Source: Laspinema olomoucense D3d (GTDB lineage Bacteria > Cyanobacteriota > Cyanobacteriia > Cyanobacteriales > Laspinemataceae). Taken from it: a DNA stretch of 12,950 bases. Below, one piece after another: positions 1 to 12,950 of this stretch. Each line of letters starts with the position of its first letter. The first letter of the stretch is position 1. The notes below the pieces were generated by a model. The model did not search any database, was not told the DNA's origin, and was given only the letters and a program-made list of their open reading frames with translations. The stretch lies in the NCBI RefSeq assembly GCF_025370715.1, contig NZ_JAMXEY010000002.1. The stretch is one strand, 5' to 3'. The translations under genes and the position numbers were made by a program.

Positions 1-1590
1 AACCACCCGTTGCCCATCGCCGCTGATGGCTACGGCACGTACCCAGTCACTATGCCCGGTGAGAGTGCGTTCCTCCTCCCCTGTGGCCAGATTCCACACT
101 TTCAGGGTCTTATCGTCTGAACCGGAAACCACCCGTTGCCCATCGCCGCTGATGGCTACGGCACGTACCCAGTCACTATGCCCGGTGAGAGTGCGTTCCT
201 CCTTCCCGGTGGCCAGATTCCACACTTTCAGGGTCTTATCCCCTGAACCGGAAACCACCCGTTGCCCATCGCCGCTGATGGCTACGGCACGTACCCAGCT
301 ACTATGCCCGGTGAGAGTGCGTTCCTCCTTCCCGGTGGCCAGATTCCACACTTTCAGGGTCTTATCCCCTGAACCGGAAACCACCCGTTGCCCATCGCCG
401 CTGATGGCTACGGCACGTACCCAGCTACTATGCCCGGTGAGAGGGCGTTCCTCCTTCCCGGTGGCCAGATTCCATACTTTCAGGGTGTTATCGTCTGAAC
501 CGGAAACCACCCGTTGCCCATCGCGGCTAATGGCTACGGCACGTACCCAGCTACTATGCCCGGGGAGAGTGCGTTCCTCCTCCCCGGTGGCCAGATTCCA
601 CACTTTCAGGGTGTTATCGTCTGAACCGGAAACCACCTGTTGCCCATCGCGGCTGATGGCTACGGCAGTTACCGAGTTACTATGCCCGGTGAGAGTGCGT
701 TCCTCCTCCCCGGTGGCCAGATTCCATACTTTCAGGGTGTTATCGTCTGAACCGGAAACCACCCGTTGCCCATCGCGGCTGATGGCCACGGCATTTACCG
801 TGCCACTATGCCCGGTGAGAGCGCGTTCCTCCTCCCCGGTGGCCAGATTCCAAACCTTTAGGGTGTTATCATAAGAACCGGAAACCACCCGTTGCCCATC
901 GCGGCTGATGGCCACGGCACGTACCATATCACTATGCCCGGTGAGAGTGCGTTCCTCCTCCCCGGTGGACAGATTCCAAACCTTTAGGGTGTTATCATAA
1001 GAACCGGAAACCGCCCGTTGCCCATCGCGGCTGATGGCCACGGCACTTACCCAGTCACTATGCCCGGTGAGGGTGCGTTCCTCCTCCCCCGTGGCCAGAT
1101 TCCACACTTTCAGGGTGTTATCCTCTGAACCAGAAACCACCCGTTGCCCATCGGGGCTGATGGCCACGGCAGTTACCGAGCTACTATGCCCGGTGAGAGT
1201 GCGTTCCTCCTCCCCCGTGGCCAGATTCCACACTTTCAGGGTGTTATCCTCTGAACCAGAAACCACCCGTTGCCCATCGGGGCTGATGGCCACGGCAGTT
1301 ACCGAGCTACTATGCCCGGTGAGAGTGCGTTCCTCCTCCCCGGTGGCCAGATTCCACACTTTCAGGGTGTTATCCTCTGAACCAGAAACCACCCGTTGCC
1401 CATCGGGGCTGATGGCCACGGCAGTTACCGAGTTACCATGCCCGGTGAGGGTGCGTTCCTCCTCCCCTGTCGCCAAATTCCACACCTTCAGGGTTTTATC
1501 CAATGAACCGGAAACCACCCGTTGCCCATCCCGGCTGATGGCGACGGCATTTACCGAGTTACCATGCCCGGTGAGAGTGCGGATTAAGGG
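1..1590 (-). repeat. Tandem array of 13 near-identical 126-bp units, each encoding one 42-aa WD40 blade; the array continues beyond the window
   Basis: The motif aaccacccgttgcccatcgc recurs at 1, 127, 253, 379, 505, 631, 757, 883, 1009, 1135, 1261, 1387 and 1513, an exact 126-bp period. Units are roughly 90% or more identical at the DNA level by eye. Differences concentrate in a few codons. Confidence 0.9.
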
Positions 1591-3981
1591 ACCGCCGGGG
1601 GCTGTCAAGTTAGGGAAGAGGGGACGAATCCAGGGTTTTCTTTGACATTGTTGCGCCTGGGTCAGCAGTTGGATGATGGCGGGGAACGTCTCCCTTTGGG
1701 GAGTCTCCTCCGCATACTTGGGTAAATGCTGACCAATGCCCGGAATCCGCTCCCAGAAATAGCGATAGGGAGGTTTAGGGGGGGTCATCTCCCCAAAAGA
1801 CAACAACCGCCCCCAGAGTTGCCCCGCCAGTTGGCTGGTATCCTGCTGCACCACATGGGCGGACAAGCGCACCGCCTCCCCCACTAGCTCCAGGGTCCGA
1901 CTTGCCACCGCCTCTGGAACTGCCTCAAAATCCGCCAACACCGCCCCCACCCCCAGGCGCTCTATCTTCCCCTGCAACCAGGGAAAATCCAGTAACAGGG
2001 GTGGGATGTGGTGTGGGCAAACTTGGAGATGGTGACGAATGGCGTAGCGAGCAAAATACTCATCCGCCGTCGCCTCGTGATAGCCTTCGGGATAGCGTTG
2101 ACCATAAGCGGCGAAAAACTGCTCCTGACGCGCCGTCAAATCCCCCGCCTGTTGGCGCACATAATCCACCTGCAAATCGTGCAGACTCAGCCGATCTAAC
2201 TCATCCCGCAACAGCAACGACTTCGCCACCAAATCATTCACCACATCGGACACCGCCGAGGCATCCAGCCCGATCGCCCCCCAGAAAATTTCCAGCACCC
2301 CCTCGGGAATCGGCCTATCCTCCGGGAAAATCGCCAAATCCAGATACCGAGTCGCCATATCTGACGGCAACGCATCCACACTCACTTGCAGCACTTTCAG
2401 TAAATTGGGATGGGGATAATTCGGGAACTCGTAGGCAATCCGAGCTAAATCTGGCGATCGCAATTTTTCCAGCACATTCCGCCAACGGTTTGCCCCGTTC
2501 CCACGGACCATTGCCCCGGCGATCGCCACTGCCAAAGGCAAATAGCCACATTCCCGCACCACCTCCACCGCCTCCGGTGGCAATCCTTCCCGGTGTTCCC
2601 CCGCCCACTGCGCCACCAACCCTAACCCCTGCTCCTCGGACAACACCCCCACCTCATGACCTTGGGCCGCCAACCCCGTCACTAACCTCCCATCCCGGGT
2701 CGTCACCAACAATTGACACCGTGGCCCCAACCCGTCAAACGCCGCCGCGTGGGACATCTGCCAAACATCATCCAACACCAACAAACAAGCGCGCCCCTCC
2801 AACTGTTGCGCCAGTGCCGCTTTCCCCTGGGGCACATCCTCAAAATAGATGCGCTCCCCGGTGAAATAGGCCACACAGTCCACCAATCGCGCTTTCACGT
2901 TCGGTTTTTGCCCCAAGGTCACCCACAGCACCCCATCGGGAAACCGTTCTCCCACCGCTTCATCCCGCGCCACCGCCGCCGCCAGCACCGACTTCCCAAT
3001 GCCCCCCATCCCCTGCACGCCCACCCGCTGCGCCACCCCCGTCATCACCAAAGTTTGGGACTCGGTTCCCAGCAGCTTGGTTTTAATCGCCTCAACTTCT
3101 TCTGAGCGGGGCAAAAACTTCAGAGGCAAGGACGGCACATTAAACAACTGGGAACGGAGTGCAGCGGTTGCCCCTTCCCCCCCTGCCAGTCGGTCCATCT
3201 TGCCTTCCATGCGCTCTCCCTGTCGCATCAGACGCAAGAAATTCTCGTCTAAGCTACTCAGCACCCGCTCCACATCTTCCCGCTGCGCCAACTTCGGCAA
3301 ATACTGCTGAATTTCCTGAAGCTGCGCCAAAGTTGCCCCATGCAAATCCAACACCATCCCCCCAAACGCTTTCGGGTCATCCTTCAACACCTGCCGCAAA
3401 TACTGGCCAAAATTCGCCGCCAACTCCCCCGCCAACGCCGCCACCACATCCTGATACTCGGCAGCTTCCGCAGGCAAAATCCCCCGCCCATAGCCCCAAT
3501 CCACCAAATCCTCACTTAACTCCTGCCACTCGTCCGCCGTCAAAACCGGGTAGTTGCTGAACCCTCCGGGTGCTTGGCTAAACAGGTGATAAAGCTGCTC
3601 CTCCTGCAAGGTTTCAAACACATTAATGCCCTGCACCCGCTCCAACCAATAGACTTCCACCCCATCCGCCAACCCCTGCAATCCAGCGCGCAAATCCAGG
3701 AACTGGGGGATGATGCGCTCCTCTAAGGTTTTCCCCACCGTCCGTCCCGCCGCCTTCGCTAAATCCTCATTCCGCAACACCTCCCCATGATTGCGAAACC
3801 GATCGAGCAACGCCTCGATCTCATTTGCCCCCAAGCTGCTGATAATCCCACTCGTCACAGTCCATACCGCTTCTGTCCCAGGACTCCCCGCCTTTGCTAG
3901 AGTCCACACAGCCCCCAACCCCAGTAGCGCCGTTTTACCCAATAGGCTTCGATTCACCTTGAGCCACCGATTCGCATCCAT
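1..3981 (-). CDS. STAND/NLR-like NTPase: unknown N-terminal domain, then NB-ARC (AP-ATPase), then a WD40 repeat array. The C-terminus is partial: the gene continues beyond the window start, in-window part 1,327 codons
   Basis: Minus-strand frame is open from the ATG at 3979-3981 (GGAGG 10 nt upstream) to position 1 with no stop. Walker A QGMGGIGKS is encoded around 2990-3013, Walker B ACLLVLDDVW at 2761-2790, and an LLVTTRD sensor motif follows. The linker PWIRPLFPNLTAPGGPLIRTLTGH then leads into 13 WD40 units of consensus SGSxDxTLKVWNLATGEEERTLTGHSxxVxAVAISxDGQRVV. The plus-strand ORFs in the track (26..874, 1034..1645, 1902..2864) are antisense artefacts of this gene. Confidence 0.85.
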   Translation of the reverse strand, partial: MDANRWLKVNRSLLGKTALLGLGAVWTLAKAGSPGTEAVWTVTSGIISSLGANEIEALLDRFRNHGEVLRNEDLAKAAGRTVGKTLEERIIPQFLDLRAGLQGLADGVEVYWLERVQGINVFETLQEEQLYHLFSQAPGGFSNYPVLTADEWQELSEDLVDWGYGRGILPAEAAEYQDVVAALAGELAANFGQYLRQVLKDDPKAFGGMVLDLHGATLAQLQEIQQYLPKLAQREDVERVLSSLDENFLRLMRQGERMEGKMDRLAGGEGATAALRSQLFNVPSLPLKFLPRSEEVEAIKTKLLGTESQTLVMTGVAQRVGVQGMGGIGKSVLAAAVARDEAVGERFPDGVLWVTLGQKPNVKARLVDCVAYFTGERIYFEDVPQGKAALAQQLEGRACLLVLDDVWQMSHAAAFDGLGPRCQLLVTTRDGRLVTGLAAQGHEVGVLSEEQGLGLVAQWAGEHREGLPPEAVEVVRECGYLPLAVAIAGAMVRGNGANRWRNVLEKLRSPDLARIAYEFPNYPHPNLLKVLQVSVDALPSDMATRYLDLAIFPEDRPIPEGVLEIFWGAIGLDASAVSDVVNDLVAKSLLLRDELDRLSLHDLQVDYVRQQAGDLTARQEQFFAAYGQRYPEGYHEATADEYFARYAIRHHLQVCPHHIPPLLLDFPWLQGKIERLGVGAVLADFEAVPEAVASRTLELVGEAVRLSAHVVQQDTSQLAGQLWGRLLSFGEMTPPKPPYRYFWERIPGIGQHLPKYAEETPQRETFPAIIQLLTQAQQCQRKPWIRPLFPNLTAPGGPLIRTLTGHGNSVNAVAISRDGQRVVSGSLDKTLKVWNLATGEEERTLTGHGNSVTAVAISPDGQRVVSGSEDNTLKVWNLATGEEERTLTGHSSSVTAVAISPDGQRVVSGSEDNTLKVWNLATGEEERTLTGHSSSVTAVAISPDGQRVVSGSEDNTLKVWNLATGEEERTLTGHSDWVSAVAISRDGQRAVSGSYDNTLKVWNLSTGEEERTLTGHSDMVRAVAISRDGQRVVSGSYDNTLKVWNLATGEEERALTGHSGTVNAVAISRDGQRVVSGSDDNTLKVWNLATGEEERTLTGHSNSVTAVAISRDGQQVVSGSDDNTLKVWNLATGEEERTLPGHSSWVRAVAISRDGQRVVSGSDDNTLKVWNLATGKEERPLTGHSSWVRAVAISGDGQRVVSGSGDKTLKVWNLATGKEERTLTGHSSWVRAVAISGDGQRVVSGSGDKTLKVWNLATGKEERTLTGHSDWVRAVAISGDGQRVVSGSDDKTLKVWNLATGEEERTLTGHSDWVRAVAISGDGQRVV

Positions 3982-4151
3982 CCTCTGTACCTCCACCACT
4001 GCACCTATTTTACTGAAGGTTCATCACCTTGGACACGATTTGTCAGCAAAAAGTGGGTACGAACAGCGCTATCCGGATTCATGAATTTCACCGCAACGGA
4101 CGGGAGCCATTAGAATAGAAACGTGAATCTGACTTAACCGGAGTGTGTGAC
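3982..4151. promoter_or_regulatory. Divergent intergenic region shared by the STAND gene (minus) and the small-protein/protease cassette (plus); presumed divergent promoters
   Basis: This 170-bp non-coding gap lies between two start codons facing away from each other. GGAGG is present 10 nt upstream of the minus-strand ATG and GGAG 8 nt upstream of the plus-strand ATG at 4152. No -35/-10 pair could be pinned down confidently. Confidence 0.35.
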
Positions 4152-4367
4152 ATGGTGCCATCGGAATTAATCTCAACCTTGAGAGCGCTGAGTCGTTCAG
4201 ATCAGTTCTATATCATGCAGATTCTGCTCTCAGAATTAGCCCAGCAGGAACCTACTCTGATTCAGTCTGAGCAATCTTATCCAGTGTGGTCGCCTTATGG
4301 TGCGGATGAGGCAGCAGATACAATGTTAAAAGTGCTACAGGAGTCTAAATCTCAAGATGATGGGTAA
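4152..4367 (+). CDS. Small acidic hypothetical protein, 71 aa, D/E-rich; partner of the downstream protease
   Basis: ATG at 4152 with GGAG at 4140-4143 (8-nt spacer). The ORF track starts at the GTG at 4143, and ATG 4152 is the more likely start. The frame stays open through an AT-richer stretch. Its stop TAA at 4365-4367 overlaps the next ORF's ATGATG start at 4357. No recognisable family. Confidence 0.5.
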   Translation: MVPSELISTLRALSRSDQFYIMQILLSELAQQEPTLIQSEQSYPVWSPYGADEAADTMLKVLQESKSQDDG

Positions 4368-4788
4368 TCCTGAACGATATCCATTTTTATCGGGTAATCC
4401 GGCATTAGGTGAAGCTAGTTTTTGTCCGTATCTGCCTTTGACCTTGTTTTACCAGGAGAGTTCACTCAAAACCTCCGGGCTGTTAGATACTGGGGCAAGT
4501 GTAAATGTGCTGCCATATTTGACAGGCATTGAGCTGGGATACGAATGGGAGAGACAAACAACTGCTCTGAGCCTGACTGGTAATTTAGCTCAGTATGAGG
4601 CGCGTGTTGTACTTGCTCAAGGGATCATTGGTCAGTTTGAGCCTGTGCAACTGGTATTTGCCTGGACACAAGCTACAAACGTACCGCTCATTCTGGGGCA
4701 GGTAAACTTTTTTATGGAGTTCGATGTCTGTTTCTATCGTTCCCAGTTAGAGTTTGCAGTCAGCCCTAAAACTCCTTCCTCCGAGTAG
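4357..4788 (+). CDS. Retropepsin-like (clan AA) single-domain aspartyl protease, 143 aa
   Basis: Catalytic motif LLDTGASVNVLP (Asp at aa 44, nt 4486-4488) follows a hydrophobic hairpin region. The C-terminal hh-G-x-hh motif LILGQVNFF matches the ILGRD/IIGRN dimer-interface motif of retropepsins and Ddi1. Its size fits a homodimerising half-pepsin. The start overlaps the upstream stop by 11 nt (ATGATGGGTAA), indicating translational coupling. Confidence 0.6.
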   Translation: MMGNPERYPFLSGNPALGEASFCPYLPLTLFYQESSLKTSGLLDTGASVNVLPYLTGIELGYEWERQTTALSLTGNLAQYEARVVLAQGIIGQFEPVQLVFAWTQATNVPLILGQVNFFMEFDVCFYRSQLEFAVSPKTPSSE

Positions 4789-4895: not shown

Positions 4896-6482
4896 GTGAC
4901 TCCTAGCTCTAAACCCTTTGATTCTGTCACTCCCCCGTCTGAAGAAGAACTCACCGATATCGTGGTGATCGGGAGTGGAATTGGTGGATTGTGCTGTGCT
5001 GCTTTATTGGCACAGTATGGGTTCGCGGTGACGGTTTGTGAGAGTCATAGCATTGCAGGGGGTGCAGCGCATGGGTTTTCTCGGAATGGATATACGTTTG
5101 ATTCGGGTCCGTCGTTGCATTCTGGGTTGTCTGACCCTCACTCGGCTCACCCACTTAAACAGGTGTTGGATGCCATTGGTGAAACAGTCCCTTGTGTGAC
5201 TTATGATACTTGGGGTTGTTATCTTCCGGAAGGGGAATTGAATATTGCCGTGGGTGCAGACCCGTTTTGTGAGGTACTGCAACAGTTGCGAGGCAGGGGT
5301 GCGGTGCAGGAATGGCGGAAGTTGCAACAAGTTATGGAACCGTTAGCGGCAGCAGCGAAGGCGATTCCTCCCACTGCGTTGCGCTGGGATTGGGGGGCTG
5401 CGATCGCCACAGCACGGTTTGCACCAGCGGTTTTGCCTCACTTGGGAAACATCGTTAAACTTACCGGGCCCTTTAGTCGAGTCATGGATGAGGTGATTCA
5501 GGACCCGTTTATCCGCAACTGGTTGGATTTGCTCTGTTTTCTGCTCTCTGGACTGCCTGCCTCGGGGACTAGCGCCGCAGAAATGGCCTTTATGTTTGCG
5601 GAATGGTATCGACCCGGGGTCGTGCTAGAGTACCCCATTGGCGGCAGTGGCGCGATCGCAGAGGCATTGGTGCGGGGACTCGAAAAACAGGGGGGACGGT
5701 TGCGGTTGAATGCTCATGTTGAACAAGTGCTGGTAAAAGGCGACTGCGCGGTAGGCGTGCGTCTGCGGGGAGGGACGGTGATTCACGCCCGTCAAGCGGT
5801 GGTATCCAATGCGTCGGTGTGGGATACGTTGAAATTACTACCCCAGGATGCAGTTCCGAAATCGTTTCGCAGTCGCCGTCAAGCCACTCCCGCTTGTGAG
5901 AGTTTCATGCACCTGCACCTCGGCATCGATGCTGCTGGATTACCGGCTGATTTAGCCTGTCATTATATCATTGTTAACGACTGGAGTCAAGGGATTACAG
6001 CCCCGCAAAATGTCGTTTTAGTCTCCATTCCCTCGGTGTTAGACCCGTCCCTCGCCCCACCGGGAAAGCACGCGATTCATGTTTATACACCTGGGAACGA
6101 ACCCTATCATTTATGGGCGGGACTTGAGCGCAATAGTGCGGCATATCAAGACTTGAAGCAAGAACGGGCGCAGGTAATGTGGCAAGGATTAGAACGCATT
6201 ATTCCGGATATTCGGCAGCGATGTGAGGTGACTTTGGTGGGAACACCTCTGACTCATGAGCGATTTTTACGCCGCGATCGCGGTTCTTATGGTCCTGCGA
6301 TTGCGGCAGGAAGCGGCTTTTTTCCGGGTCCAACCACTCCCTTATCGGGGTTATTCTGCTGTGGGGATTCCACTTTTCCCGGAATCGGTTTACCTGCCGT
6401 TGCCGCCAGTGGGGCGATCGCCGCTAATACGATCGCCCCCTTGCACAAGCATCTCGCCCTACTTAAGGCGATCGGTTTTTAA
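4896..6482 (+). CDS. CrtI-superfamily FAD/NAD(P)-binding oxidoreductase (phytoene desaturase / carotenoid isomerase-ketolase related; COG1233-like)
   Basis: N-terminal Rossmann dinucleotide-binding motif DIVVIGSGIGGLCCAALLA...E...GG. C-terminal blocks IPSVLDPSLAPPGKH, GSYGP and CCGDSTFPGIGLPAVAASG are typical of CrtI/CrtH/CrtO-type enzymes. The start is a GTG at 4896, with no in-frame ATG before the Rossmann motif. The exact enzyme cannot be assigned. Confidence 0.75.
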   Translation: MTPSSKPFDSVTPPSEEELTDIVVIGSGIGGLCCAALLAQYGFAVTVCESHSIAGGAAHGFSRNGYTFDSGPSLHSGLSDPHSAHPLKQVLDAIGETVPCVTYDTWGCYLPEGELNIAVGADPFCEVLQQLRGRGAVQEWRKLQQVMEPLAAAAKAIPPTALRWDWGAAIATARFAPAVLPHLGNIVKLTGPFSRVMDEVIQDPFIRNWLDLLCFLLSGLPASGTSAAEMAFMFAEWYRPGVVLEYPIGGSGAIAEALVRGLEKQGGRLRLNAHVEQVLVKGDCAVGVRLRGGTVIHARQAVVSNASVWDTLKLLPQDAVPKSFRSRRQATPACESFMHLHLGIDAAGLPADLACHYIIVNDWSQGITAPQNVVLVSIPSVLDPSLAPPGKHAIHVYTPGNEPYHLWAGLERNSAAYQDLKQERAQVMWQGLERIIPDIRQRCEVTLVGTPLTHERFLRRDRGSYGPAIAAGSGFFPGPTTPLSGLFCCGDSTFPGIGLPAVAASGAIAANTIAPLHKHLALLKAIGF

Positions 6483-6507
6483 AACTCCACAAACCCTATT
6501 ATGCAAT

Positions 6508-6541
6508 GTTCATAGTCACAACTTCAGTCGTTACTATGAAC
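6508..6541. terminator. Perfect 9-bp inverted repeat (GTTCATAGT-16 nt-ACTATGAAC) between convergent genes; possible bidirectional terminator or protein-binding palindrome
   Basis: The left arm 6508-6516 is the exact reverse complement of the right arm 6533-6541. The right arm overlaps the TAG stop (6534-6536) of the minus-strand GST gene. There is no clear U-tract on either side, so intrinsic-terminator status is weak. Confidence 0.3.
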
Positions 6542-7505
6542 TAAGAGAATGGCTTAAAACCTCGCGATGGTGGGGCTCCTGTAAGTTGGTGATAGTTGGT
6601 CCTAATGGAATAATTCCACCGGGATTTAAGGGGAAAAGATTACCGTAATAGTCTCGTTTAATACTATCAAGATTACAAGTGTCTGCTACTCCCGGGAGTT
6701 GATAGATATCCCTGAGATAGGGTCCGAGGTTTTGATAGTCCTGGATGCGGCGTTTATTGCATTTAAAGAGTCCGTGATAAACAATATCAAAACGAAATAA
6801 TGTGGTAAATAGCCGCACATCAGCTAGAGTTAATTGGTCGCCGCATAAGTATCGATTAGTCGCCAAAACTGCATCTATTTCATCTAAGGTATTAAACAGT
6901 TCCGTGCAGGCGGTGTTGTATGCGGTTTGACTTTGAGCAAATCCACAGCGATAGACGCCGTTGTTAATAGCAGGGTAAATTTTATCGTTCCAGTATTCTA
7001 TTTTGTCTTGCAACTTTTCGGGATATAAATTGAGTTCTGGATGAGGGCTAAATTCATTAAATTCTGAATTTAGCATGATGATAATTTCCGCACTTTCATT
7101 GTTAACAATGGTCTGGGTTTGGGTATCAAATAGGACCGGAACGGTGCAGCGTCCTTGATATCCGGGACGGGCGATCGCATACAGTTCCGGGAGGGTTTGA
7201 CAGCCGTATTCGGGTTCATCCAGGACCCAGATTCCGGCATCGGGAGAGGGGGAGACAATGGCAACGGAAATGGCCGATTCTAATCCTTTGAGCGATCGCA
7301 CCACCAGGGTCCGATGCGCCCAAGGGCAACCCAATCCCACATACAGGCGATACCGTTCCTTAGCTGGGGGATAGGGGTTTTCGGGTTGGGTTCCGACGGA
7401 ATTTCTAAACTCGCTGATGGGACGAATGTATTCTCCAGTTTGATTACGCGGGGCGAGTTTGGACATCATCAGTTGCCATAGGCTCGTCCAGACAAATTTG
7501 CCCAT
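6534..7505 (-). CDS. yqjG: Xi-class glutathione S-transferase / glutathionyl-hydroquinone reductase (YqjG/ECM4 family)
   Basis: Hallmark Cys-Pro-Trp-Ala active-site motif in RYRLYVGLGCPWAHRTLV. Blocks VPVLFDTQTQTIVNNESAEII, NNGVYRCGFAQSQTAY, LTLADVRLFTTLFRFD, LRDIYQLPG and GIIPLGP align closely with what I recall of E. coli YqjG. The start is chosen at the ATG (7503-7505) giving MGKFVW..., which aligns with the YqjG N-terminus. In-frame alternatives lie upstream at 7586 (MSLETPS...) and 7652. Confidence 0.8.
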   Translation of the reverse strand: MGKFVWTSLWQLMMSKLAPRNQTGEYIRPISEFRNSVGTQPENPYPPAKERYRLYVGLGCPWAHRTLVVRSLKGLESAISVAIVSPSPDAGIWVLDEPEYGCQTLPELYAIARPGYQGRCTVPVLFDTQTQTIVNNESAEIIIMLNSEFNEFSPHPELNLYPEKLQDKIEYWNDKIYPAINNGVYRCGFAQSQTAYNTACTELFNTLDEIDAVLATNRYLCGDQLTLADVRLFTTLFRFDIVYHGLFKCNKRRIQDYQNLGPYLRDIYQLPGVADTCNLDSIKRDYYGNLFPLNPGGIIPLGPTITNLQEPHHREVLSHSLSS

Positions 7506-7671
7506 TTTAATAATAACTTTTGAGGGCAGTTTTTTCCCTTTTTTCGGGGGAGTATTGGTTTGGTTGGAAGGAGTTTCTAAAGACATAATCAATGGGGTGA
7601 AGGGGATAAACTCATAAAAAATATTTCTCGTCTTACAAGTTGAGTAATGCACAGGCGAGGGCCTGGTTATT

Positions 7672-8178
7672 TTAGTCGGGTAATTGTTCTTTCAAAGAAG
7701 AAATAATCTGAGCATCTAGTTTGAGTTTGACCTCGATTAAGCGGGTGGTATCCCGGAAAATTAAAATTTGATTGTCTTCTACAAAAATTTCTGGTTCTTG
7801 CAAAGTCAAGGTTTGATATTTCAAGGCAGCGAGTCCGATCTGCATGACGAGGGTGGGTTGGGATTGGGGATAAATGTAGAGTTGCTGCCGTTTGGGGTCG
7901 AGTTGCAGTTGTCTGACGGTGGTATTGCGTTCGTCTGGCATTCCGGGTTTTGACCAATAGAGGGTAATGCCGCGTATATCGGGGTTGGCGATCGCAAAGG
8001 TTTCGTCAAAGCGTTGGGGTTCCCAATCCAATTCTCGAACATCGCCGTTTCCCGGAAGGATACGCTGGCGCAAGATGATCTCTTTGCCGTTGAGGTTGCG
8101 CCACCATTGCCGGATTGTCTCGAAATTTTCAACCATCTCGGGATTGCTATTCCCAGAGTGCCAGGTGATGAATTGCAC
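7672..8178 (-). CDS. Hypothetical protein (about 168 aa), family not recognised
   Basis: The minus-strand frame is open for 176 codons. The start is chosen at the GTG (8176-8178) preceded by a near-perfect SD AGGAGG with a 6-nt spacer. The ORF track's start at 8202 is a TTG and the first ATG lies 23 codons further in. No motifs recognised. It is transcribed divergently from the HDAC-family gene. Confidence 0.5.
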   Translation of the reverse strand: MQFITWHSGNSNPEMVENFETIRQWWRNLNGKEIILRQRILPGNGDVRELDWEPQRFDETFAIANPDIRGITLYWSKPGMPDERNTTVRQLQLDPKRQQLYIYPQSQPTLVMQIGLAALKYQTLTLQEPEIFVEDNQILIFRDTTRLIEVKLKLDAQIISSLKEQLPD

Positions 8179-8274
8179 GATCGCCCTCCTGATTACTATC
8201 AATAATTCCCATTTTAGAGTTTAAATTAGATTTTAAAGGTGACTGTACCTCGGCAACGCTAAACCTTCCCTGAC

Positions 8275-9192
8275 ATGGACTTACCCATCGTTTATCATCC
8301 TGACTATGTGGCCCCTCTGCCTCCGTCCCATCGTTTCCCGATGGAAAAGTTTCGGTTACTCTATGAAATGCTTTTAGGCGATCGCGTTGTCACTCCCGAA
8401 CAGTGTCACACGCCAGAATTGCCACCCCAGGACTGGATTGAATCCGTCCATGACCCCCAATATGTCCAGGCATATTGCCAAGGCACTCTCGACCCCAAAG
8501 CACAGCGCAGGATTGGTTTACCCTGGACTGAGGCGATCGCCCATCGCACTTGTATCTCCATTGGTGGGGCAGTTTTGACCGCTAAACTGGCATTAAAACA
8601 CGGATTAGCTTGCAACACCGCCGGGGGAACGCATCATGCCTTTCCCGATTTTGGATCAGGGTTTTGCATTTTCAATGATTTGGCGATCGCCTCCAGGATG
8701 ATCCAAAAATTGGCCGGGATTCGCAAAGTCTTAATTGTTGATTTGGACGTCCATCAAGGGGATGGGACAGCCTTTATTTTTAAAAATGACCCGGATGTTT
8801 TTACCTTTTCTCTACACTGTGAGGCCAATTTTCCCGGGCGAAAACAAACCAGTGATTTAGATGTTCCTTTACCCGTAGGAATGGAGGATGATGAATACTT
8901 GCAAACCGTCGCTGGTTATTTACCGGATTTACTCGGACAATTCCAACCGGATTTAGTCTTGTATGACGCAGGAGTGGATGTTCATGCAGGCGATCGCCTG
9001 GGTAAATTAGCCCTGAGTGATACCGGGATTTTTCGGCGAGATATGCAGGTGTTAAGCACCTGTCTCGCCGCTAGATATCCCGTTGCCTGTGTCATTGGGG
9101 GCGGATATTGCGAGGATATGCGCGGTTTGGTGTATCGCCATTCTCTCTTACATCGTGCTGCAGCTCAAGTGTATCGTCAGTATCGACTTTAG
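8275..9192 (+). CDS. Histone deacetylase-superfamily amidohydrolase (AcuC / acetylpolyamine aminohydrolase-like)
   Basis: N-terminal PIVYHPDY is followed by the class-defining GGTHHAFPDFGSGFCIFNDLAIA block, the metal-binding LIVDLDVHQGDGT block and a C-terminal GGGY motif. ATG at 8275. Confidence 0.85.
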   Translation: MDLPIVYHPDYVAPLPPSHRFPMEKFRLLYEMLLGDRVVTPEQCHTPELPPQDWIESVHDPQYVQAYCQGTLDPKAQRRIGLPWTEAIAHRTCISIGGAVLTAKLALKHGLACNTAGGTHHAFPDFGSGFCIFNDLAIASRMIQKLAGIRKVLIVDLDVHQGDGTAFIFKNDPDVFTFSLHCEANFPGRKQTSDLDVPLPVGMEDDEYLQTVAGYLPDLLGQFQPDLVLYDAGVDVHAGDRLGKLALSDTGIFRRDMQVLSTCLAARYPVACVIGGGYCEDMRGLVYRHSLLHRAAAQVYRQYRL

Positions 9193-9275
9193 TGGTAACA
9201 ACCGCTGGGGATTAAAACCTCCAGCTAATAGCTTAAGGCAACAACCGCCAATCGATTTATCCCCCGCCTGGTTTG

Positions 9276-10844
9276 CTACTCCCGTTCCAAAATTCTGACC
9301 ATTCCTTTGGCACTGCCACTGATGAGAAGTTGTCCATTTGGACTGTAAACTAAGGACATCACGGCCCCACTTTCTTCCGTTAACGTGCAGAGTAATTTAC
9401 CTGTGGGTAAATGCCAGATTTTGACCGTCCCATCGGCGCTGCCTGTGGCAAAGCTGTTCCCATCTGGGGCGAGGGCGACTGCGGTTACGGGTCCTAAATG
9501 GGCACTCAGACTCCACAGCAGTTCACCCGTTTCCAAATTCCAGAGTTGAATACTGCCGTCGCCACTGCCGCCGATGAGGAGTTGTTGGGGAGAGATGACG
9601 ATCGCTTCTACTGCCTCTAAACTGCCATTGAGGACCGAAATCGGCTGTTTGGTTTGGAACTGCCACAGGGTAATCGTACCGTCCCCACCGCCTCGGGCGA
9701 GAATTTGACCATCGGGGGAAATAGCGAGGGAAAAGATGGGTCCGGTATAGTCCGTGAGGGTATCAATTAATTCAGCAGTGGACAAATCCCACAATTTAAT
9801 CGTCTCGTCAAAACTGCCACTGACGAGGGTTTTGCCATCAGGGGCGATCGCCAAGGCGCGGACGGAACCCCCATGTCCCGTGAGGGTTTCTTTGGGAATT
9901 CCTGTGGGGAGTTCCCAGAGTTTGATGGTTTTATCCCAACTGGCAGAGGCGAGGGTTTTGCCATCGGGGGCGATCGCAATGGCAAATACCCCCCGTTTGT
10001 GTTCGGCAAGGACTTGCAACAGTTCGCCCGTAGTCAGGTTCCACAGTTTAATACTGGTATCAAAACTGCCCGTTGCTAGAATTTGTCCATCAGGGGTAAT
10101 CCCCAGCGATCGCACCCAGTCCGCATGGGCGGGCAAACTGTGGCGACAGCTCCAATTCTGGGCCGTGGGTTCTGAGGGGGCCGCAAATGACGGCAGGACG
10201 ACTTTCGACGCGGGCGGTTTGGATTTGGCGGGTTGAGAAGGGGTTGCGGATGTGGGGGGTTCCGGCGTTGCCAGTTCCGGTTGAGGGCGAGGAGAGGGCG
10301 ACGGGACCACGATTTGCGAGGTTAATTGGGAAATTGCCTCCTCCACTCGTTCTAAGCGGTAGGCAAAGGATGAACGATTCAGATAGGCGATCGCATTGCC
10401 CAGACTTTCATCCAACAAGGCATATTGCTCTTTCAACCCCGCGATTTCCCCCTGAATCTGGGACAAATCCACCGATTCTAATTTCCCCAATCGGGTTTTA
10501 AGCAGAGCCAATTCATCCGGGGACCCCGTAGCCACAGGGGGGCGGCTGCCTTCCTCTACTTCCACTTGAGGGAGGGGAAGTTGCTTCTGGGCTTCCACCC
10601 GTTGGGTGAGCATTTCCAGTTCTTCCGCCAATTGGCGATGCTGTCGATTCGTTGTTCCACTGACTCGGCGAGTTTGGTGTTCCAGGCGATACCGGGCGAT
10701 CGCATTCAAAATCAGGGTACTGCAAATCAAAGGGGCGGCTACATAGATAGCCCCATTAAAAAAAACCGCCACTATCGACGCCACCAATGACGCGAACAAG
10801 GAAGCATATTCTGCGGTTTCTAGCCAATGACGGTGATTTGACAT
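9276..10844 (-). CDS. Membrane-anchored coiled-coil / Pro-rich-linker / 7x WD40 repeat protein
   Basis: Start taken at ATG 10842-10844 (MSNHRHW...) with GGAAGGA 6 nt upstream; the ORF track's 10862 is a GTG. The N-terminus has two hydrophobic helices (LFASLVASIVAVFF, VAAPLICSTLILNAI), then a heptad-like QLAEELEMLTQRVEAQ region, then a P/S/T-rich linker (PSPSPRPQPELATPEPPTSATPSQP). Seven diverged WD40 units follow, such as DTSIKLWNLTTGE, DKTIKLWELPTG, DETIKLWDL and DGTVKIWHLPTG. Confidence 0.8.
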   Translation of the reverse strand: MSNHRHWLETAEYASLFASLVASIVAVFFNGAIYVAAPLICSTLILNAIARYRLEHQTRRVSGTTNRQHRQLAEELEMLTQRVEAQKQLPLPQVEVEEGSRPPVATGSPDELALLKTRLGKLESVDLSQIQGEIAGLKEQYALLDESLGNAIAYLNRSSFAYRLERVEEAISQLTSQIVVPSPSPRPQPELATPEPPTSATPSQPAKSKPPASKVVLPSFAAPSEPTAQNWSCRHSLPAHADWVRSLGITPDGQILATGSFDTSIKLWNLTTGELLQVLAEHKRGVFAIAIAPDGKTLASASWDKTIKLWELPTGIPKETLTGHGGSVRALAIAPDGKTLVSGSFDETIKLWDLSTAELIDTLTDYTGPIFSLAISPDGQILARGGGDGTITLWQFQTKQPISVLNGSLEAVEAIVISPQQLLIGGSGDGSIQLWNLETGELLWSLSAHLGPVTAVALAPDGNSFATGSADGTVKIWHLPTGKLLCTLTEESGAVMSLVYSPNGQLLISGSAKGMVRILERE

Positions 10845-10900
10845 AGAGTCCTTCCCACCCACCGGAGCCTATATTACAAGTGCCATTTTATCAAAAATCC
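10845..10900 (-). promoter_or_regulatory. Putative promoter region of the membrane WD40 gene
   Basis: Read on the minus strand: TTGATA...(12 nt)...TTGTAATAT, with a TAATAT -10-like hexamer (plus-strand 10871-10876) about 27 nt upstream of the ATG. The spacing to the -35-like TTGATA is suboptimal, so this is tentative. Confidence 0.2.
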
Positions 10901-11174: not shown

Positions 11175-12575
11175 TTACAATCCTAGAAATAGCTTGGCAA
11201 TATTAAAGTAAATCAGAACACCCAAAACATCTACAGCCGTGGTAATAAATGGTGCTGACATCAGGGCGGGATCTAACTTAATGGCGCGGAATAAAAATGG
11301 CAGGGCTGAACCGGATACCGATGCCAAAATTGAAATCGCAATCAGAGAGATGCCGACACAGAAAGCCACCTGGAGATTGACTCGCAACAGGAAAAAAGCC
11401 CAGATGGTGGCAAGAGTTCCCAAAATTGTCCCTAGTAATGCACCGGCAATTCCTTCTCGCCAGATAACTTTGAGCGGTCCGAGTAAGCGAATTTCATCGG
11501 TATTCATCCCGCGAATCACCACAGTAGAAGACTGGGCACCGACATTCCCTCCCGTACCCGTCAGCAGGGGAATAAAGGCGGTGAGGACGACGACTTGCTG
11601 CAATAGCTCTTTTTGGGAATTAATAATTGATCCGGTTACGGTATTGGTGAGCAATAAGACGAACAGCCACACGACACGGCGTCGCGCCACTGTCCATAAA
11701 TTCATTTCAAAATAATTATCCCCATCGGTTTGGACCCCACCCAAGGCATAAATATCCTCGGTGGTTTCCTGTTCCATGATGTCGATCGCATCATCGATGG
11801 TGATGACCCCGACTAAGCGTTGCTCGCGATCGACCACGGGGATCGCTAGGAAATCATAGCGCTGAATCAGGCGCGAGACTTCCTCACCGTCGGTATCTGT
11901 ATGGACGAATACCACATCCCGAGTCATGATTTCACTAATTTTTTCCTCGGGGGAACTAATCACCAAGTCCCGCAGGGAAACGATTCCGGTTAACCGGCGT
12001 TCGCTATCCATGACATAGAGGTAATAAATAATTTCCGCCACTGGCGACAGGGTGCGAATCCGTTCCAGGGTTTGGCTGACGCTCATATTTTCCCGGACGG
12101 AAATATATTCCGGGGTCATGATTCTCCCGGCAGTTCCCGATTCATAGCCCATTAGCAGGGCGGTGGACTGCCATTCCGTGGGAGACAGTTGTGCCCGCAA
12201 TCGGCGCACGACTTTCGAGGGCAATTCATCCAGCAGTCGGGCGCGATCGTCCGGGGACATATTGCCAATGATATCTAGGACGTCCTGGCGCTTGAAGTCT
12301 TCTAAAAGCACCTGTTGGACGCTGGTATCGAGATGTTCATAAACTTCCGTTGCTTCCTGTTTGGATAGCAAGCGAAAGGCGATCGCCTGCATCGCTTCAG
12401 GCATTCCTTCGATCGCTTCGGCGATATCCACAGGTTGAACCGGGACTAAAATCGCTTTAGCCCCCTGGAGGTCCCCCTGTCTGAGCAGGGCTTCCAGTTG
12501 CGATCGCACTAAGTCAGGTATTTCTCTCCGCGACAGGGTCCCGAGGGGAGAGGATATCGGTTGAGGTTCAGTCAC
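11175..12575 (-). CDS. mgtE: Magnesium transporter MgtE (N-terminal MgtE-N domain, tandem CBS domains, C-terminal 5-TM MgtE pore domain)
   Basis: 466 aa. The GTG start at 12573-12575 is preceded by AGGGAG with a 6-nt spacer. The CBS-like regions are ...YISVRENMSVSQTLERIR... and ...RDVVFVHTDTDGEEVSRLIQRYDFLAIPVVD... The C-terminal TM block carries the conserved ...GNVGAQSSTVVIRG... and ...APFITTAVDVLGVLIYF... signatures of MgtE. Confidence 0.9.
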   Translation of the reverse strand: MTEPQPISSPLGTLSRREIPDLVRSQLEALLRQGDLQGAKAILVPVQPVDIAEAIEGMPEAMQAIAFRLLSKQEATEVYEHLDTSVQQVLLEDFKRQDVLDIIGNMSPDDRARLLDELPSKVVRRLRAQLSPTEWQSTALLMGYESGTAGRIMTPEYISVRENMSVSQTLERIRTLSPVAEIIYYLYVMDSERRLTGIVSLRDLVISSPEEKISEIMTRDVVFVHTDTDGEEVSRLIQRYDFLAIPVVDREQRLVGVITIDDAIDIMEQETTEDIYALGGVQTDGDNYFEMNLWTVARRRVVWLFVLLLTNTVTGSIINSQKELLQQVVVLTAFIPLLTGTGGNVGAQSSTVVIRGMNTDEIRLLGPLKVIWREGIAGALLGTILGTLATIWAFFLLRVNLQVAFCVGISLIAISILASVSGSALPFLFRAIKLDPALMSAPFITTAVDVLGVLIYFNIAKLFLGL

Positions 12576-12690: not shown

Positions 12691-12950
12691 TCACTCCGCA
12701 CCTCCCAAAAGCTGCTGTGCCACCGTTAAATAAATTAACACCCCCAGGACATCCACTGCTGTGGTAATAAAGGGCGCTGACATTAAGGTTGGCTCAAATC
12801 CTAGGCGATCAAATAAAAACGGGAGGGCTGACCCGGCGAAGGAGGCGAGGATAGTAATCGCCAGCAAACTCACTCCCACGGAAATAGCAACCAGGAGATT
12901 TCCCGCTAGGAAATAGGCCCAAATGGTGACAATAAGCGACAGCATGATTC
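12691..12950 (-). CDS. mgtE: Second MgtE-family magnesium transporter, C-terminal transmembrane part only (N-terminus beyond the window end)
   Basis: Translation ...ISVGVSLLAITILASFAGSALPFLFDRLGFEPTLMSAPFITTAVDVLGVLIYLTV... is clearly paralogous to the C-terminus of the complete mgtE at 11175..12575 (..ISLIAISILASVSGSALPFLFRAIKLDPALMSAPFITTAVDVLGVLIYFNI..). The frame stays open to the window edge. The Met at 12945 is probably internal. Confidence 0.75.
   Translation of the reverse strand, partial: IMLSLIVTIWAYFLAGNLLVAISVGVSLLAITILASFAGSALPFLFDRLGFEPTLMSAPFITTAVDVLGVLIYLTVAQQLLGGAE

Follow-up and report, generated by a model that had tools for sequence, protein, structure and literature searches.

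A cyanobacterial Apaf-1-like NB-ARC/WD40 protein with an N-terminal domain of no recognised family: a candidate conflict switch in Laspinema olomoucense

Introduction

Filamentous cyanobacteria are rich in NB-ARC/WD40 proteins, which are the closest relatives that Apaf-1 has among bacteria and are without any demonstrated function. The question of what such a protein does for its host is raised by the gene at the left end of a 12,950-nucleotide stretch of the genome of Laspinema olomoucense D3d (contig NZ_JAMXEY010000002.1 of assembly GCF_025370715.1), the whole of which we call the window. A preliminary annotation made from the letters alone, here termed the sequence-only reading, took this gene for a NOD-like receptor (NLR) of the STAND type (signal-transducing ATPases that have numerous domains) and proposed an antiphage or cell-death role, which by analogy remains the kind of role that we favour. 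Its product is an Apaf-1-like NLR from a filamentous cyanobacterium, and we consider it most likely, at a little better than an even chance, that this NLR acts as a ligand-triggered conflict or immune switch. That cyanobacteria hold NB-ARC/WD40 proteins, that these are kin to Apaf-1 and that they can carry highly conserved repeats is known already; new, as far as we have searched, are the family to which the N-terminal domain belongs and the evolutionary behaviour of this locus, of neither of which was a description found in the searched sources.

Gene and domain architecture

The sole long open frame within positions 1-4020 lies on the minus strand and runs from the ATG at 3981, with a GGAGG ten bases upstream, to position 1 without a stop. 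It places 1327 codons inside the window, so that the protein has at least 1327 aa. Complete orthologues from four related genomes are 1379-1390 aa long, share the N-terminus MDA(K/N)(R/Q)WLKVNRSLL and close with a degenerate final WD40 blade; the window protein is therefore predicted to lack about 55-60 C-terminal residues, which would complete roughly 14 WD40 units including that final blade. The order of domains is N-terminal domain (N-domain), NB-ARC, winged-helix domain (WHD), helical domain 2 (HD2) and then ∼14 WD40 blades, a number that would suffice for two propellers. Laspinema palackyanum D2a and Laspinema sp. D2d are the relatives with names, and the closest public record, JAMXEZ010000006.1 (GCA_025370725.1; L001 below), is 97.4% identical overall. 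Neither the minus-strand orientation nor the C-terminal cut was given in the sequence-only reading; both are added here. The parts of the gene are as follows.

1..3981, minus strand: NLR-like STAND gene, a single uninterrupted frame, 5' complete, 3' cut at the left edge of the window
3232..3981, minus strand: N-terminal domain, aa 1 to ∼250, predicted all-helical
3811..3945, minus strand: hydrophobic segment rich in Gly/Ala/Ser/Thr, aa 13-57, predicted as two helices, transmembrane-like in the family at large, low predicted local distance difference test (pLDDT) score
3736-3780, minus strand: conserved motif VLRNEDLAKAAGRTV of the N-domain, family form L-x-N-E/H-D-L-x-K-A-x-G
3337-3399, minus strand: conserved motif LRQVLKDDPKAFGGMVLDLHG of the N-domain
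3058..3231, minus strand: variable helical linker from N-domain to NB-ARC, aa 251-308, which aligns poorly among homologues
2374..3057, minus strand: NB-ARC NTPase, aa 309-536, Pfam PF00931 E 5.9e-28
2989-3012, minus strand: Walker A GMGGIGKS, aa 324-331
2761-2784, minus strand: Walker B LLVLDDVW, aa 400-407
2692-2712, minus strand: TTR sensor-1, LLVTTRD, aa 424-430
2527-2550, minus strand: GxP motif GYLPLAV (GYLPLA), aa 478-485
2161..2361, minus strand: Apaf-1-like WHD, aa 541-607, Pfam PF21296 E 2.2e-9
2170-2187, minus strand: LHD (MHD-type) motif SLHDLQ, aa 599-604, within the WHD
1576..2160, minus strand: HD2 and linker, APAF1_C-like, aa 608-802
1..1581, minus strand: WD40 tandem array, aa 803-1327, 12.5 units of 126 bp

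The NTPase motif set is intact, from Walker A and Walker B through sensor-1 and GxP to the MHD-type motif in the WHD. PF00931 scores 98.2 bits against a cut-off of 23.5 bits in the Pfam profile search, which strongly prefers NB-ARC over NACHT (E 0.03, below cut-off). The best relative of solved structure is Apaf-1 itself (E 1e-38 over ∼375 residues, aa 312-686, in the PDB search), followed by plant NLRs: an RPW8-domain protein (2e-21), NRCs (∼1e-17), ZAR1 (3e-14) and Sr35 (1e-9). APAF1_C (PF17908) matches weakly in the window protein (E 0.11, aa 624-712) and with E 4.8e-8 in the homologue P0005. On these profile matches we assign the protein to the STAND NTPases of the AP-ATPase/NB-ARC clade, with a central module that is Apaf-1-like. 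The tripartite NLR/STAND architecture of the sequence-only reading is thus upheld and sharpened to NB-ARC, WHD, HD2 and WD40 of Apaf-1 type; its quoted motifs GMGGIGKS, LLVLDDVW and TTR all lie in frame, as does its quoted codon string, at aa 327.

NCBIfam returns sub-threshold matches to AfsR-type STANDs and to STANDs associated with ribosomally synthesised and post-translationally modified peptides (RiPPs). In PADLOC-DB v2, which includes the Avs1-5 and bNACHT models, no family matches aa 1-800 at E ≤ 0.01, and the sole match of the full protein is the repeat-containing HEAT-ARM_XIII model, by way of the WD40 repeats.

A split arrangement of related parts is seen elsewhere. In L009-L011 (10001-14300), a gene of 645-647 aa joins an N-domain to an NPHP3_N/AAA_16 NTPase, and its stop overlaps the start of a separate gene of 729-788 aa. 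Just downstream of this NTPase gene, tblastn matches the HD2-like linker and the WD40 repeats, and by tblastn L016 (1203-4225) has the same layout.

The N-terminal domain family

To what family does the N-terminus belong? For residues 1 to ∼300, Pfam gives no match at E ≤ 1 other than a hit to DUF5955 that is not significant, and PADLOC and NCBIfam give none; aa 1-330 contain neither a CARD nor a caspase at Pfam E ≤ 1. No similarity of sequence or fold to HeLo, RPW8, Rx_N (coiled coil, CC), MLKL or Bell was detected, and no Pfam family of the described effector-associated domains (EADs), bacterial death-like domains (bDLDs) or TRADD-N matches the N-domain. None of these last three is among the 25 most often matched of the 113 Pfam families matched by 62 N-domain members. 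EACC2 (Kaur et al. 2021) had been considered because it is likewise a constant N-terminal module ahead of CHASE2, kinase or STAND; it was rejected, being an alpha+beta domain that precedes a caspase.

The N-domain nevertheless has relatives. A word-indexed search of 5.8 billion proteins found only four. When a profile was run exhaustively against 1.84 billion cluster representatives, 146 matched at E ≤ 1e-3, 66 of them at E ≤ 1e-10. The match is N-terminal in nearly all 146 representatives, the exceptions being fragments or weak partial matches. Besides the first motif listed above, the family core holds a second, L-R-x-V-L-K-x-D...G-K-A-F-x-G. Every named organism in the family is a cyanobacterium and the named genera are all filamentous (Laspinema, Oscillatoria, Limnospira/Arthrospira, Spirulina, Phormidium, Geitlerinema, Microcoleus, Tychonema, Roseofilum and Planktothrix, among others). 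Our scan of the genome collection (alignment A4) detected only relatives with N[EH]D[LI][AI][KQ]A[AV]G, so that divergent paralogues in the same genome were missed by it. No publication on the family was found in the searchable literature, and as far as searched it is undescribed in libraries and papers alike. That the N-domain is of no recognised family, as the sequence-only reading had it, is borne out by the negative results from Pfam, NCBIfam, PADLOC, PDB and BFVD.

What lies downstream of the domain varies widely. Among the 62 members scanned with Pfam, NB-ARC follows in 29, AAA_16 in 21, NACHT in 16 and NPHP3_N in 10; beyond the NTPase, ∼18 have TPR and 5 have WD40. Single members carry nSTAND1 (P0010), iSTAND (P0045), VMAP-M1 with VMAP-C (P0084) or TPR only, and others Pkinase (P0065, E 5e-11), Trypsin_2 (P0119, weak, E 3e-4) or CHASE2 (P0019, E 2e-61). 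The domain is thus present on at least five NTPase clades as well as on VMAP and iSTAND. Of 102 long members, 76 have a Walker A, the median position of which is 361, and about 3 are effector-fused copies.

The first 55-60 residues of the N-domain are hydrophobic and rich in Gly, Ala, Ser and Thr. Across the family, a 19-residue Kyte-Doolittle value of at least 1.6, as high as in transmembrane segments, is reached within the first 90 aa in 78% of 143 members, and the family median is 1.77 in that part compared to 1.01 in aa 90-260. AlphaFold models of the window N-domain have a mean pLDDT of 49.8 (with 5 sequences) and 59.0 (with 22 sequences), and are confident only at aa 71-116 and 149-200. 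Foldseek, a check proposed in the sequence-only reading, yielded no usable fold match with the N-domain model, the best E being 0.19 against PDB and 0.37 against BFVD.

The WD40 array

The C-terminal part of the protein is one WD40 array (Pfam WD40 E 2.8e-158, from ∼aa 800), and Tandem Repeats Finder resolves it into 12.5 copies with a period of 126 bp and 94% matches (nt 1-1581). Each unit has 42 aa. The twelve full units have a mean pairwise nucleotide identity of 90.5% (range 83-100%), two of them being identical. With unit positions numbered from LTGH, amino acid variation falls almost wholly at positions 6, 7, 9, 15, 25 and 27, while V8 and D26, which lie between variable positions, are invariant in the window units.

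This pattern has a precedent in fungi. In HET-D, HET-E and NWD proteins, codons 7, 9, 25 and 27 are under strong positive selection and codons 8 and 26 under purifying selection (Paoletti et al. 2007, PMC1805685), and the selected residues, which belong to the d-a loop and the b-c turn, map to the propeller's top face (PMC1805685). We fixed codons 7, 9, 25 and 27 a priori from that work. Their pN/pS in the window copy is 3.1, versus 0.29 for the other 38; in the four orthologues it is 0.9-1.6 versus 0.27-0.43, with pN near saturation. The array undergoes concerted evolution and is hypervariable at the top-face positions that decide specificity in fungal HET-E/NWD. It is also the least conserved part of the gene, ∼85% identical between the window and L001 as set against their overall alignment identity of 97.4%; the L001 record has scaffold gaps within the array, typical of collapsed repeats. 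The regime itself is a clear member of a known phenomenon and not new, because bacterial NLR-like proteins with WD or TPR repeats of high internal conservation were noted earlier (bioRxiv 10.1101/2020.01.06.895854). Exchange of repeats with the second WD40 gene of the window (9276-10862) was ruled out, its repeats being 38-48% identical to those of the NLR.

Divergence and selection

Compared to its surroundings, the NLR gene has a history of its own. The window and L001 share 92-97% identity in the non-repeat part of the NLR and 99-100% in most flanking DNA. Against the more distant genomes (L002-L006) the order is reversed: over window positions 1582-3981 the synonymous divergence (dS) of the NLR is 0.06-0.23 (0.08-0.13 for NB-ARC), versus 0.33-0.92 for the syntenic oxidase and glutathione S-transferase (GST) genes against the same loci (flanks, window 4896-7652). 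The NLR value is mostly 3-7 fold below that of its syntenic neighbours in comparisons with four other genomes, and sliding-window comparison of L006 with L005 also gives an island of high identity at the NLR. The history of the NLR is decoupled from that of its neighbourhood, since it is the most divergent segment between close strains and has lower dS than its neighbours across species. Alleles may have been exchanged or have recently spread among lineages, with divergent alleles kept within species; alternatively, synonymous sites of the NLR may be under unusual constraint.

Amino acid replacement is also raised. The ratio of nonsynonymous to synonymous divergence (dN/dS, omega) is 0.24-0.66 for the non-repeat part of the NLR compared to 0.06-0.14 for five of six flanking genes; the sixth, the 176-aa gene called hyp176 below, has 0.36. 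In the linker (aa 251-308), dN exceeds dS in 3 of 5 orthologue comparisons (omega 1.8-3.9), which, over only 58 codons, may be noise.

Codon usage and composition

The sequence-only reading described very high GC with strongly G-ending codons, set against neighbours of about 40-45% GC, and took this as compatible with horizontal acquisition. The gene is indeed the outlier of the window, with a GC content of 0.588 and GC3 (GC at third codon positions) of 0.66 versus 0.45-0.54 and 0.43-0.56 for seven neighbours in the window. The neighbours are not uniformly at 40-45%, three being at 51-54%, and 'very high GC' is not the right description. In aa 1-800 (nt 1582-3981), G at third positions (G3) is 0.52 and C (C3) 0.17, which confirms the G-ending codons, and the effective number of codons (ENC) is 41 as compared to 48-54 for the neighbours; the WD40 part is balanced (G3 0.31, C3 0.32) and free of the bias. 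The anomaly is a preference for G at third positions, not general GC enrichment. Shares of the codons concerned are as follows.

GTG (Val): NLR aa 1-800, 88%; neighbours, 34%
GGG (Gly): NLR aa 1-800, 70%; neighbours, 29%
GCG (Ala): NLR aa 1-800, 63%; neighbours, 26%
GAG (Glu): NLR aa 1-800, 71%; neighbours, 25%

The preference is not confined to this strain. The four orthologues have GC3 of 0.63-0.65, their neighbours medians of 0.44-0.51, and in every case the orthologue is the top outlier. N-domain family genes of other cyanobacteria have G3 of 0.27-0.40 versus neighbour medians of 0.19-0.27 at nearly all of 20 loci. A GC-rich donor is rejected as the sole source of the high GC, since C3 is depressed while G3 is raised. 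Because the anomaly is a G-ending preference that N-domain relatives share in lesser degree, composition argues less strongly for acquisition than had been supposed, real though the oddity is; it is compatible with a foreign or mobile history and, equally, with a preference peculiar to the family for G-ending codons, which are locally rarer. One may speculate that such codons throttle the expression of a dangerous protein.

The two HIP1 octamers that had been noted in the gene are there, at positions 2454 and 2519. They had been taken to mean that any acquisition was not recent, which is doubtful: HIP1 is four-fold depleted (2 sites in 3981 bp versus 18 in 8969 bp, or 0.5 versus 2.0 per kb; Poisson P = 0.014) and dS is low relative to the neighbours. 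The low dS fits recent spread or exchange among these lineages, or else strong synonymous constraint.

Neighbourhood and gene loss in relatives

Two small overlapping genes diverge from the NLR and start 160 bp upstream of it. PADLOC assigns them to the candidate system PDC-M52, for which no mention in a paper was found in our literature search. The product of the second is a retropepsin-like aspartyl protease (Pfam Asp_protease_2, E 2e-4, below cut-off). We regard the pair as context, that is, as a candidate defence system whose membership in an NLR system is not implied. The sequence-only reading had proposed to examine the neighbourhood for defence genes, and here there is a candidate pair; the NLR itself matches no PADLOC model of a defence STAND. 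Other genes of the window encode a carotenoid-isomerase-like oxidase, a GST, hyp176, a histone deacetylase (HDAC)-family protein, a second WD40 protein and MgtE. The window has no vWA or MoxR gene, and it has no tRNA gene and no Rfam family, both of which were sought as clues to an integration site. Features other than the NLR are as follows.

4143-4367, plus strand: PDC-M52A candidate, 74 aa, PADLOC M52A E 4.1e-6
4357-4788, plus strand: PDC-M52B candidate, 143 aa, PADLOC M52B E 4.9e-50, retropepsin-like
7672-8202, minus strand: hyp176, 176 aa, no match in Pfam, NCBIfam or PADLOC
9276-10862, minus strand: second WD40 protein of 528 aa, its C-terminal part with six stretches matched to WD40
11175-12575 and 12691-12945, minus strand: MgtE magnesium-transporter genes in tandem, the second running off the window on the right

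As far as contigs extend, synteny in L001-L006 comprises M52A, oxidase, GST and hyp176 on one side of the NLR and an adh_short plus fatty-acid-hydroxylase gene on the other. In L002, the closest species-level relative, the M52A/B slot is taken by an eCIS_core protein (576 aa, PF13699 E 4.5e-33, 7639-9366, minus strand). The NLR gene itself is lost from several relatives. In L019 (8418-9906) it is reduced to its first 97 codons, followed by IS605 OrfB/TnpB, and in L020 (6779-7661) the same 97 codons are followed, at the contig end, by an HTH_OrfB_IS605 region only. In L023 (10159-13720), 39 codons remain at the same syntenic site, followed by unrelated ORFs. The NLR gene is thus a hotspot of divergence and of presence and absence among related genomes. 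One metagenome-assembled genome, MFD01721.bin.1.50, holds three versions of the locus (L005, L019 and L023), which probably reflects strain heterogeneity.

Some further observations concern the neighbours. L009, L011, L015 and L016 have M52B homologues at a distance of 1.5-4 kb from N-domain STAND genes that are distantly related, and VapBC/ParD-like toxin-antitoxin cassettes lie in the matching regions of L009 and L010. The gene for hyp176 is kept (80-95% aa identity) beside the GST gene in all syntenic relatives. The second WD40 protein has a 220-aa N-terminal region without significant Pfam match, and its place beside the HDAC-like and MgtE genes is kept in both L001 and L006. Both MgtE genes are complete in L001, at 466 and 467 aa.

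Discussion

That the protein is an NLR switch serving conflict or immunity is, in general terms, the reading that we think probable. It draws on the adjoining candidate pair of PADLOC, the IS605-truncated remnants in relatives, the hypervariable top face of the propellers and the raised omega. It also accords with the company kept by the N-domain family, VMAP and iSTAND being core components of conflict systems (Kaur et al. 2020, PMC7159879), and with a systematic survey of 2026 on the defence-associated STANDs of prokaryotes, which reports Apaf-1 orthologues in cyanobacteria that have propeller sensors (PMC13581612).

By analogy with Apaf-1, plant CC-NLRs and Avs/bNACHT proteins, the WD40 propellers would at rest keep the NB-ARC closed and ADP-bound. 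A foreign or altered-self protein binding to the variable propeller face would relieve this autoinhibition; nucleotide exchange at the NB-ARC would then lead to a ring-like oligomer, in which the N-terminal domains would be brought together. The clustered N-domains would constitute the output, and here we speculate that the Gly-rich helical hairpin of aa 13-57 might insert into or perturb the cytoplasmic membrane, so that the infected cell could be arrested or killed and the filament protected, as in abortive infection or regulated cell death. There is precedent for bacterial STANDs that carry transmembrane effectors (PMC13581612). We nonetheless hold the membrane-effector step rather doubtful, and well below the switch as such.

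Several observations weigh against this account. No validated PADLOC defence-family model matches the protein, PDC-M52 is itself only a candidate system, and the immune role of the whole family is argued by analogy. The right-side neighbours (oxidase, GST, HDAC-like, MgtE) are housekeeping genes, and there is therefore no dense defence island. The Kyte-Doolittle maximum of the window protein is 1.2, below the usual transmembrane threshold, and the N-domain model is confident for about one-third of residues and has no fold match; because the model is weak and its fold unmatched, the notion of a membrane effector draws on composition and position only. A few members are fusions with kinase, trypsin-like peptidase or CHASE2 domains, which would suit an adaptor or an anchor just as well as an effector.

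The adaptor deserves particular attention. The N-domain could be an undescribed EAD, a homotypic module through which the oligomerised NLR recruits kinase or peptidase proteins of the same domain that execute the response. Like most EADs it is all-helical, and the family has the architectural pattern described for them (PMC7159879), with copies on VMAP, iSTAND, nSTAND1, NACHT and NB-ARC cores and further ones on Pkinase, Trypsin_2 and CHASE2 proteins, although EADs are defined by several copies within one genome and the pattern seen here is pooled across genomes. Such enzyme-fused copies are rare, however, at ∼3 of 102 long members versus 76 with Walker A, and no Pfam model of an EAD or bDLD matches the N-domain. 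Described EADs are short soluble modules, beside which a domain of ∼250 aa with transmembrane-like helices and a hydrophobic tip is large. We see only a small chance that this is the right explanation. If the N-domain were instead a mere anchor, the protein might be a non-immune signalling or scaffold STAND, such as a membrane-tethered regulator, with the patterns reported here arising from codon constraint and repeat instability. NB-ARC/TPR regulators exist, and the sub-threshold matches to AfsR-type and RiPP-associated STANDs point to them; the right-side genes are mostly housekeeping, and codon bias as strong as that of the NLR (ENC 41) could by itself depress dS. Yet variation is targeted to the propeller top face, where pN exceeds pS, omega is elevated, an IS insertion has removed the gene from relatives that retain its neighbours, and the N-domain family is linked to the VMAP, iSTAND and nSTAND1 conflict systems, all of which makes this explanation improbable.

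The evolutionary signatures could also be those of a receptor for allorecognition or kin discrimination after the manner of HET-E/HET-D, which would sense polymorphic proteins of conspecifics and bring about death on contact with non-self. The concerted evolution of the repeats and their diversification at codons 7, 9, 25 and 27 match the fungal het NLRs, and allele-like divergence in near-identical strains with similar alleles across distant genomes resembles balanced, trans-specific polymorphism. Phage sensing predicts these same signatures, though, and no polymorphic partner locus was identified. We know of no cytoplasmic fusion between cyanobacterial filaments, such as would expose non-self proteins to a cytosolic receptor. 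Highly conserved repeats in NLR-like architectures are, for their part, typical of multicellular bacterial lineages (bioRxiv 10.1101/2020.01.06.895854). On balance we give allorecognition a slim probability.

A bolder combination would extend the favoured reading of an immune switch: the N-domain would be an unrecognised membrane-inserting death effector of filamentous cyanobacteria, a functional counterpart to CC of plants, HeLo of fungi and Bell of bacteria though unrelated to these in sequence, and shuffled onto at least five STAND clades, VMAP and iSTAND, and the NLR would be a horizontally exchanged, balanced immune or allorecognition allele with its specificity at the four WD40 top-face positions that also serve fungal het genes and its expression possibly throttled by G-ending codons. 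Taken as a whole, this is unlikely.

The locus offers a compact, testable example of its class, with a clear switch and with sensor specificity positions that can be read from the sequence, and sister genomes supply natural knock-outs and divergent alleles. Once worked out, the role of the N-domain, be it membrane killer, adaptor or anchor, would annotate ∼150 protein clusters and would inform how multicellular bacteria execute signalling of apoptosome or resistosome type.

Comparison with known systems

Avs1-5, Avs7 and bNACHT are built in three parts, namely effector, STAND NTPase and a sensor of repeats, and the window protein shares this plan. The mechanism expected for those systems leads from direct recognition of a phage protein to abortive infection, and transmembrane effectors occur among them (PMC13581612). 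The window protein differs in belonging to the NB-ARC/AP-ATPase clade, in having WD40 rather than TPR-like sensors and in matching no PADLOC model. With the EAD and VMAP/iSTAND ternary systems (Kaur et al. 2020, 2021), the N-domain shares the same 'syntax' and occurrence in multicellular cyanobacteria; it is not, however, a described EAD, bDLD, TRADD-N or EACC domain.

The plant CC-NLR resistosomes (ZAR1, Sr35, NRCs) are the next-best matches of the NB-ARC after Apaf-1 (E 2e-21 to 1e-9). CC-NLR, HeLo, MLKL and Bell proteins may share a common logic with the window protein, namely that a helical domain at the N-terminus, led by a hydrophobic helix, would become membrane-active on oligomerisation. 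Bell is the N-terminal domain of some cyanobacterial NLRs (bioRxiv 10.1101/2020.01.06.895854). At 120-140 aa it is about half as long as the window N-domain, the hydrophobic part of which looks like a two-helix, Gly-rich hairpin and not like one amphipathic helix.

Apaf-1 itself shares with the window protein the series NB-ARC, WHD and HD2 followed by tandem WD40 propellers (PDB E 1e-38). Its closest bacterial homologues are cyanobacterial proteins with propeller sensors, some with N-terminal caspases (PMC13581612). In place of a CARD or an N-terminal caspase, the window protein has a helical N-domain of ∼250 aa with a hydrophobic N-terminus, and, unlike Apaf-1, it has ∼14 near-identical WD40 units.

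In those units it comes close to the fungal NWD, HET-E and HET-D proteins, with which it shares the 42-aa unit, internal identity of ∼90%, concerted evolution and diversification at codons 7, 9, 25 and 27, as well as variation in repeat content between close strains. It differs from them in having NB-ARC rather than NACHT as its NTPase, in lacking a HET domain (Pfam) and in its prokaryotic host. The repeat regime held in common with the fungal het genes represents either convergent or anciently shared diversification of receptors.

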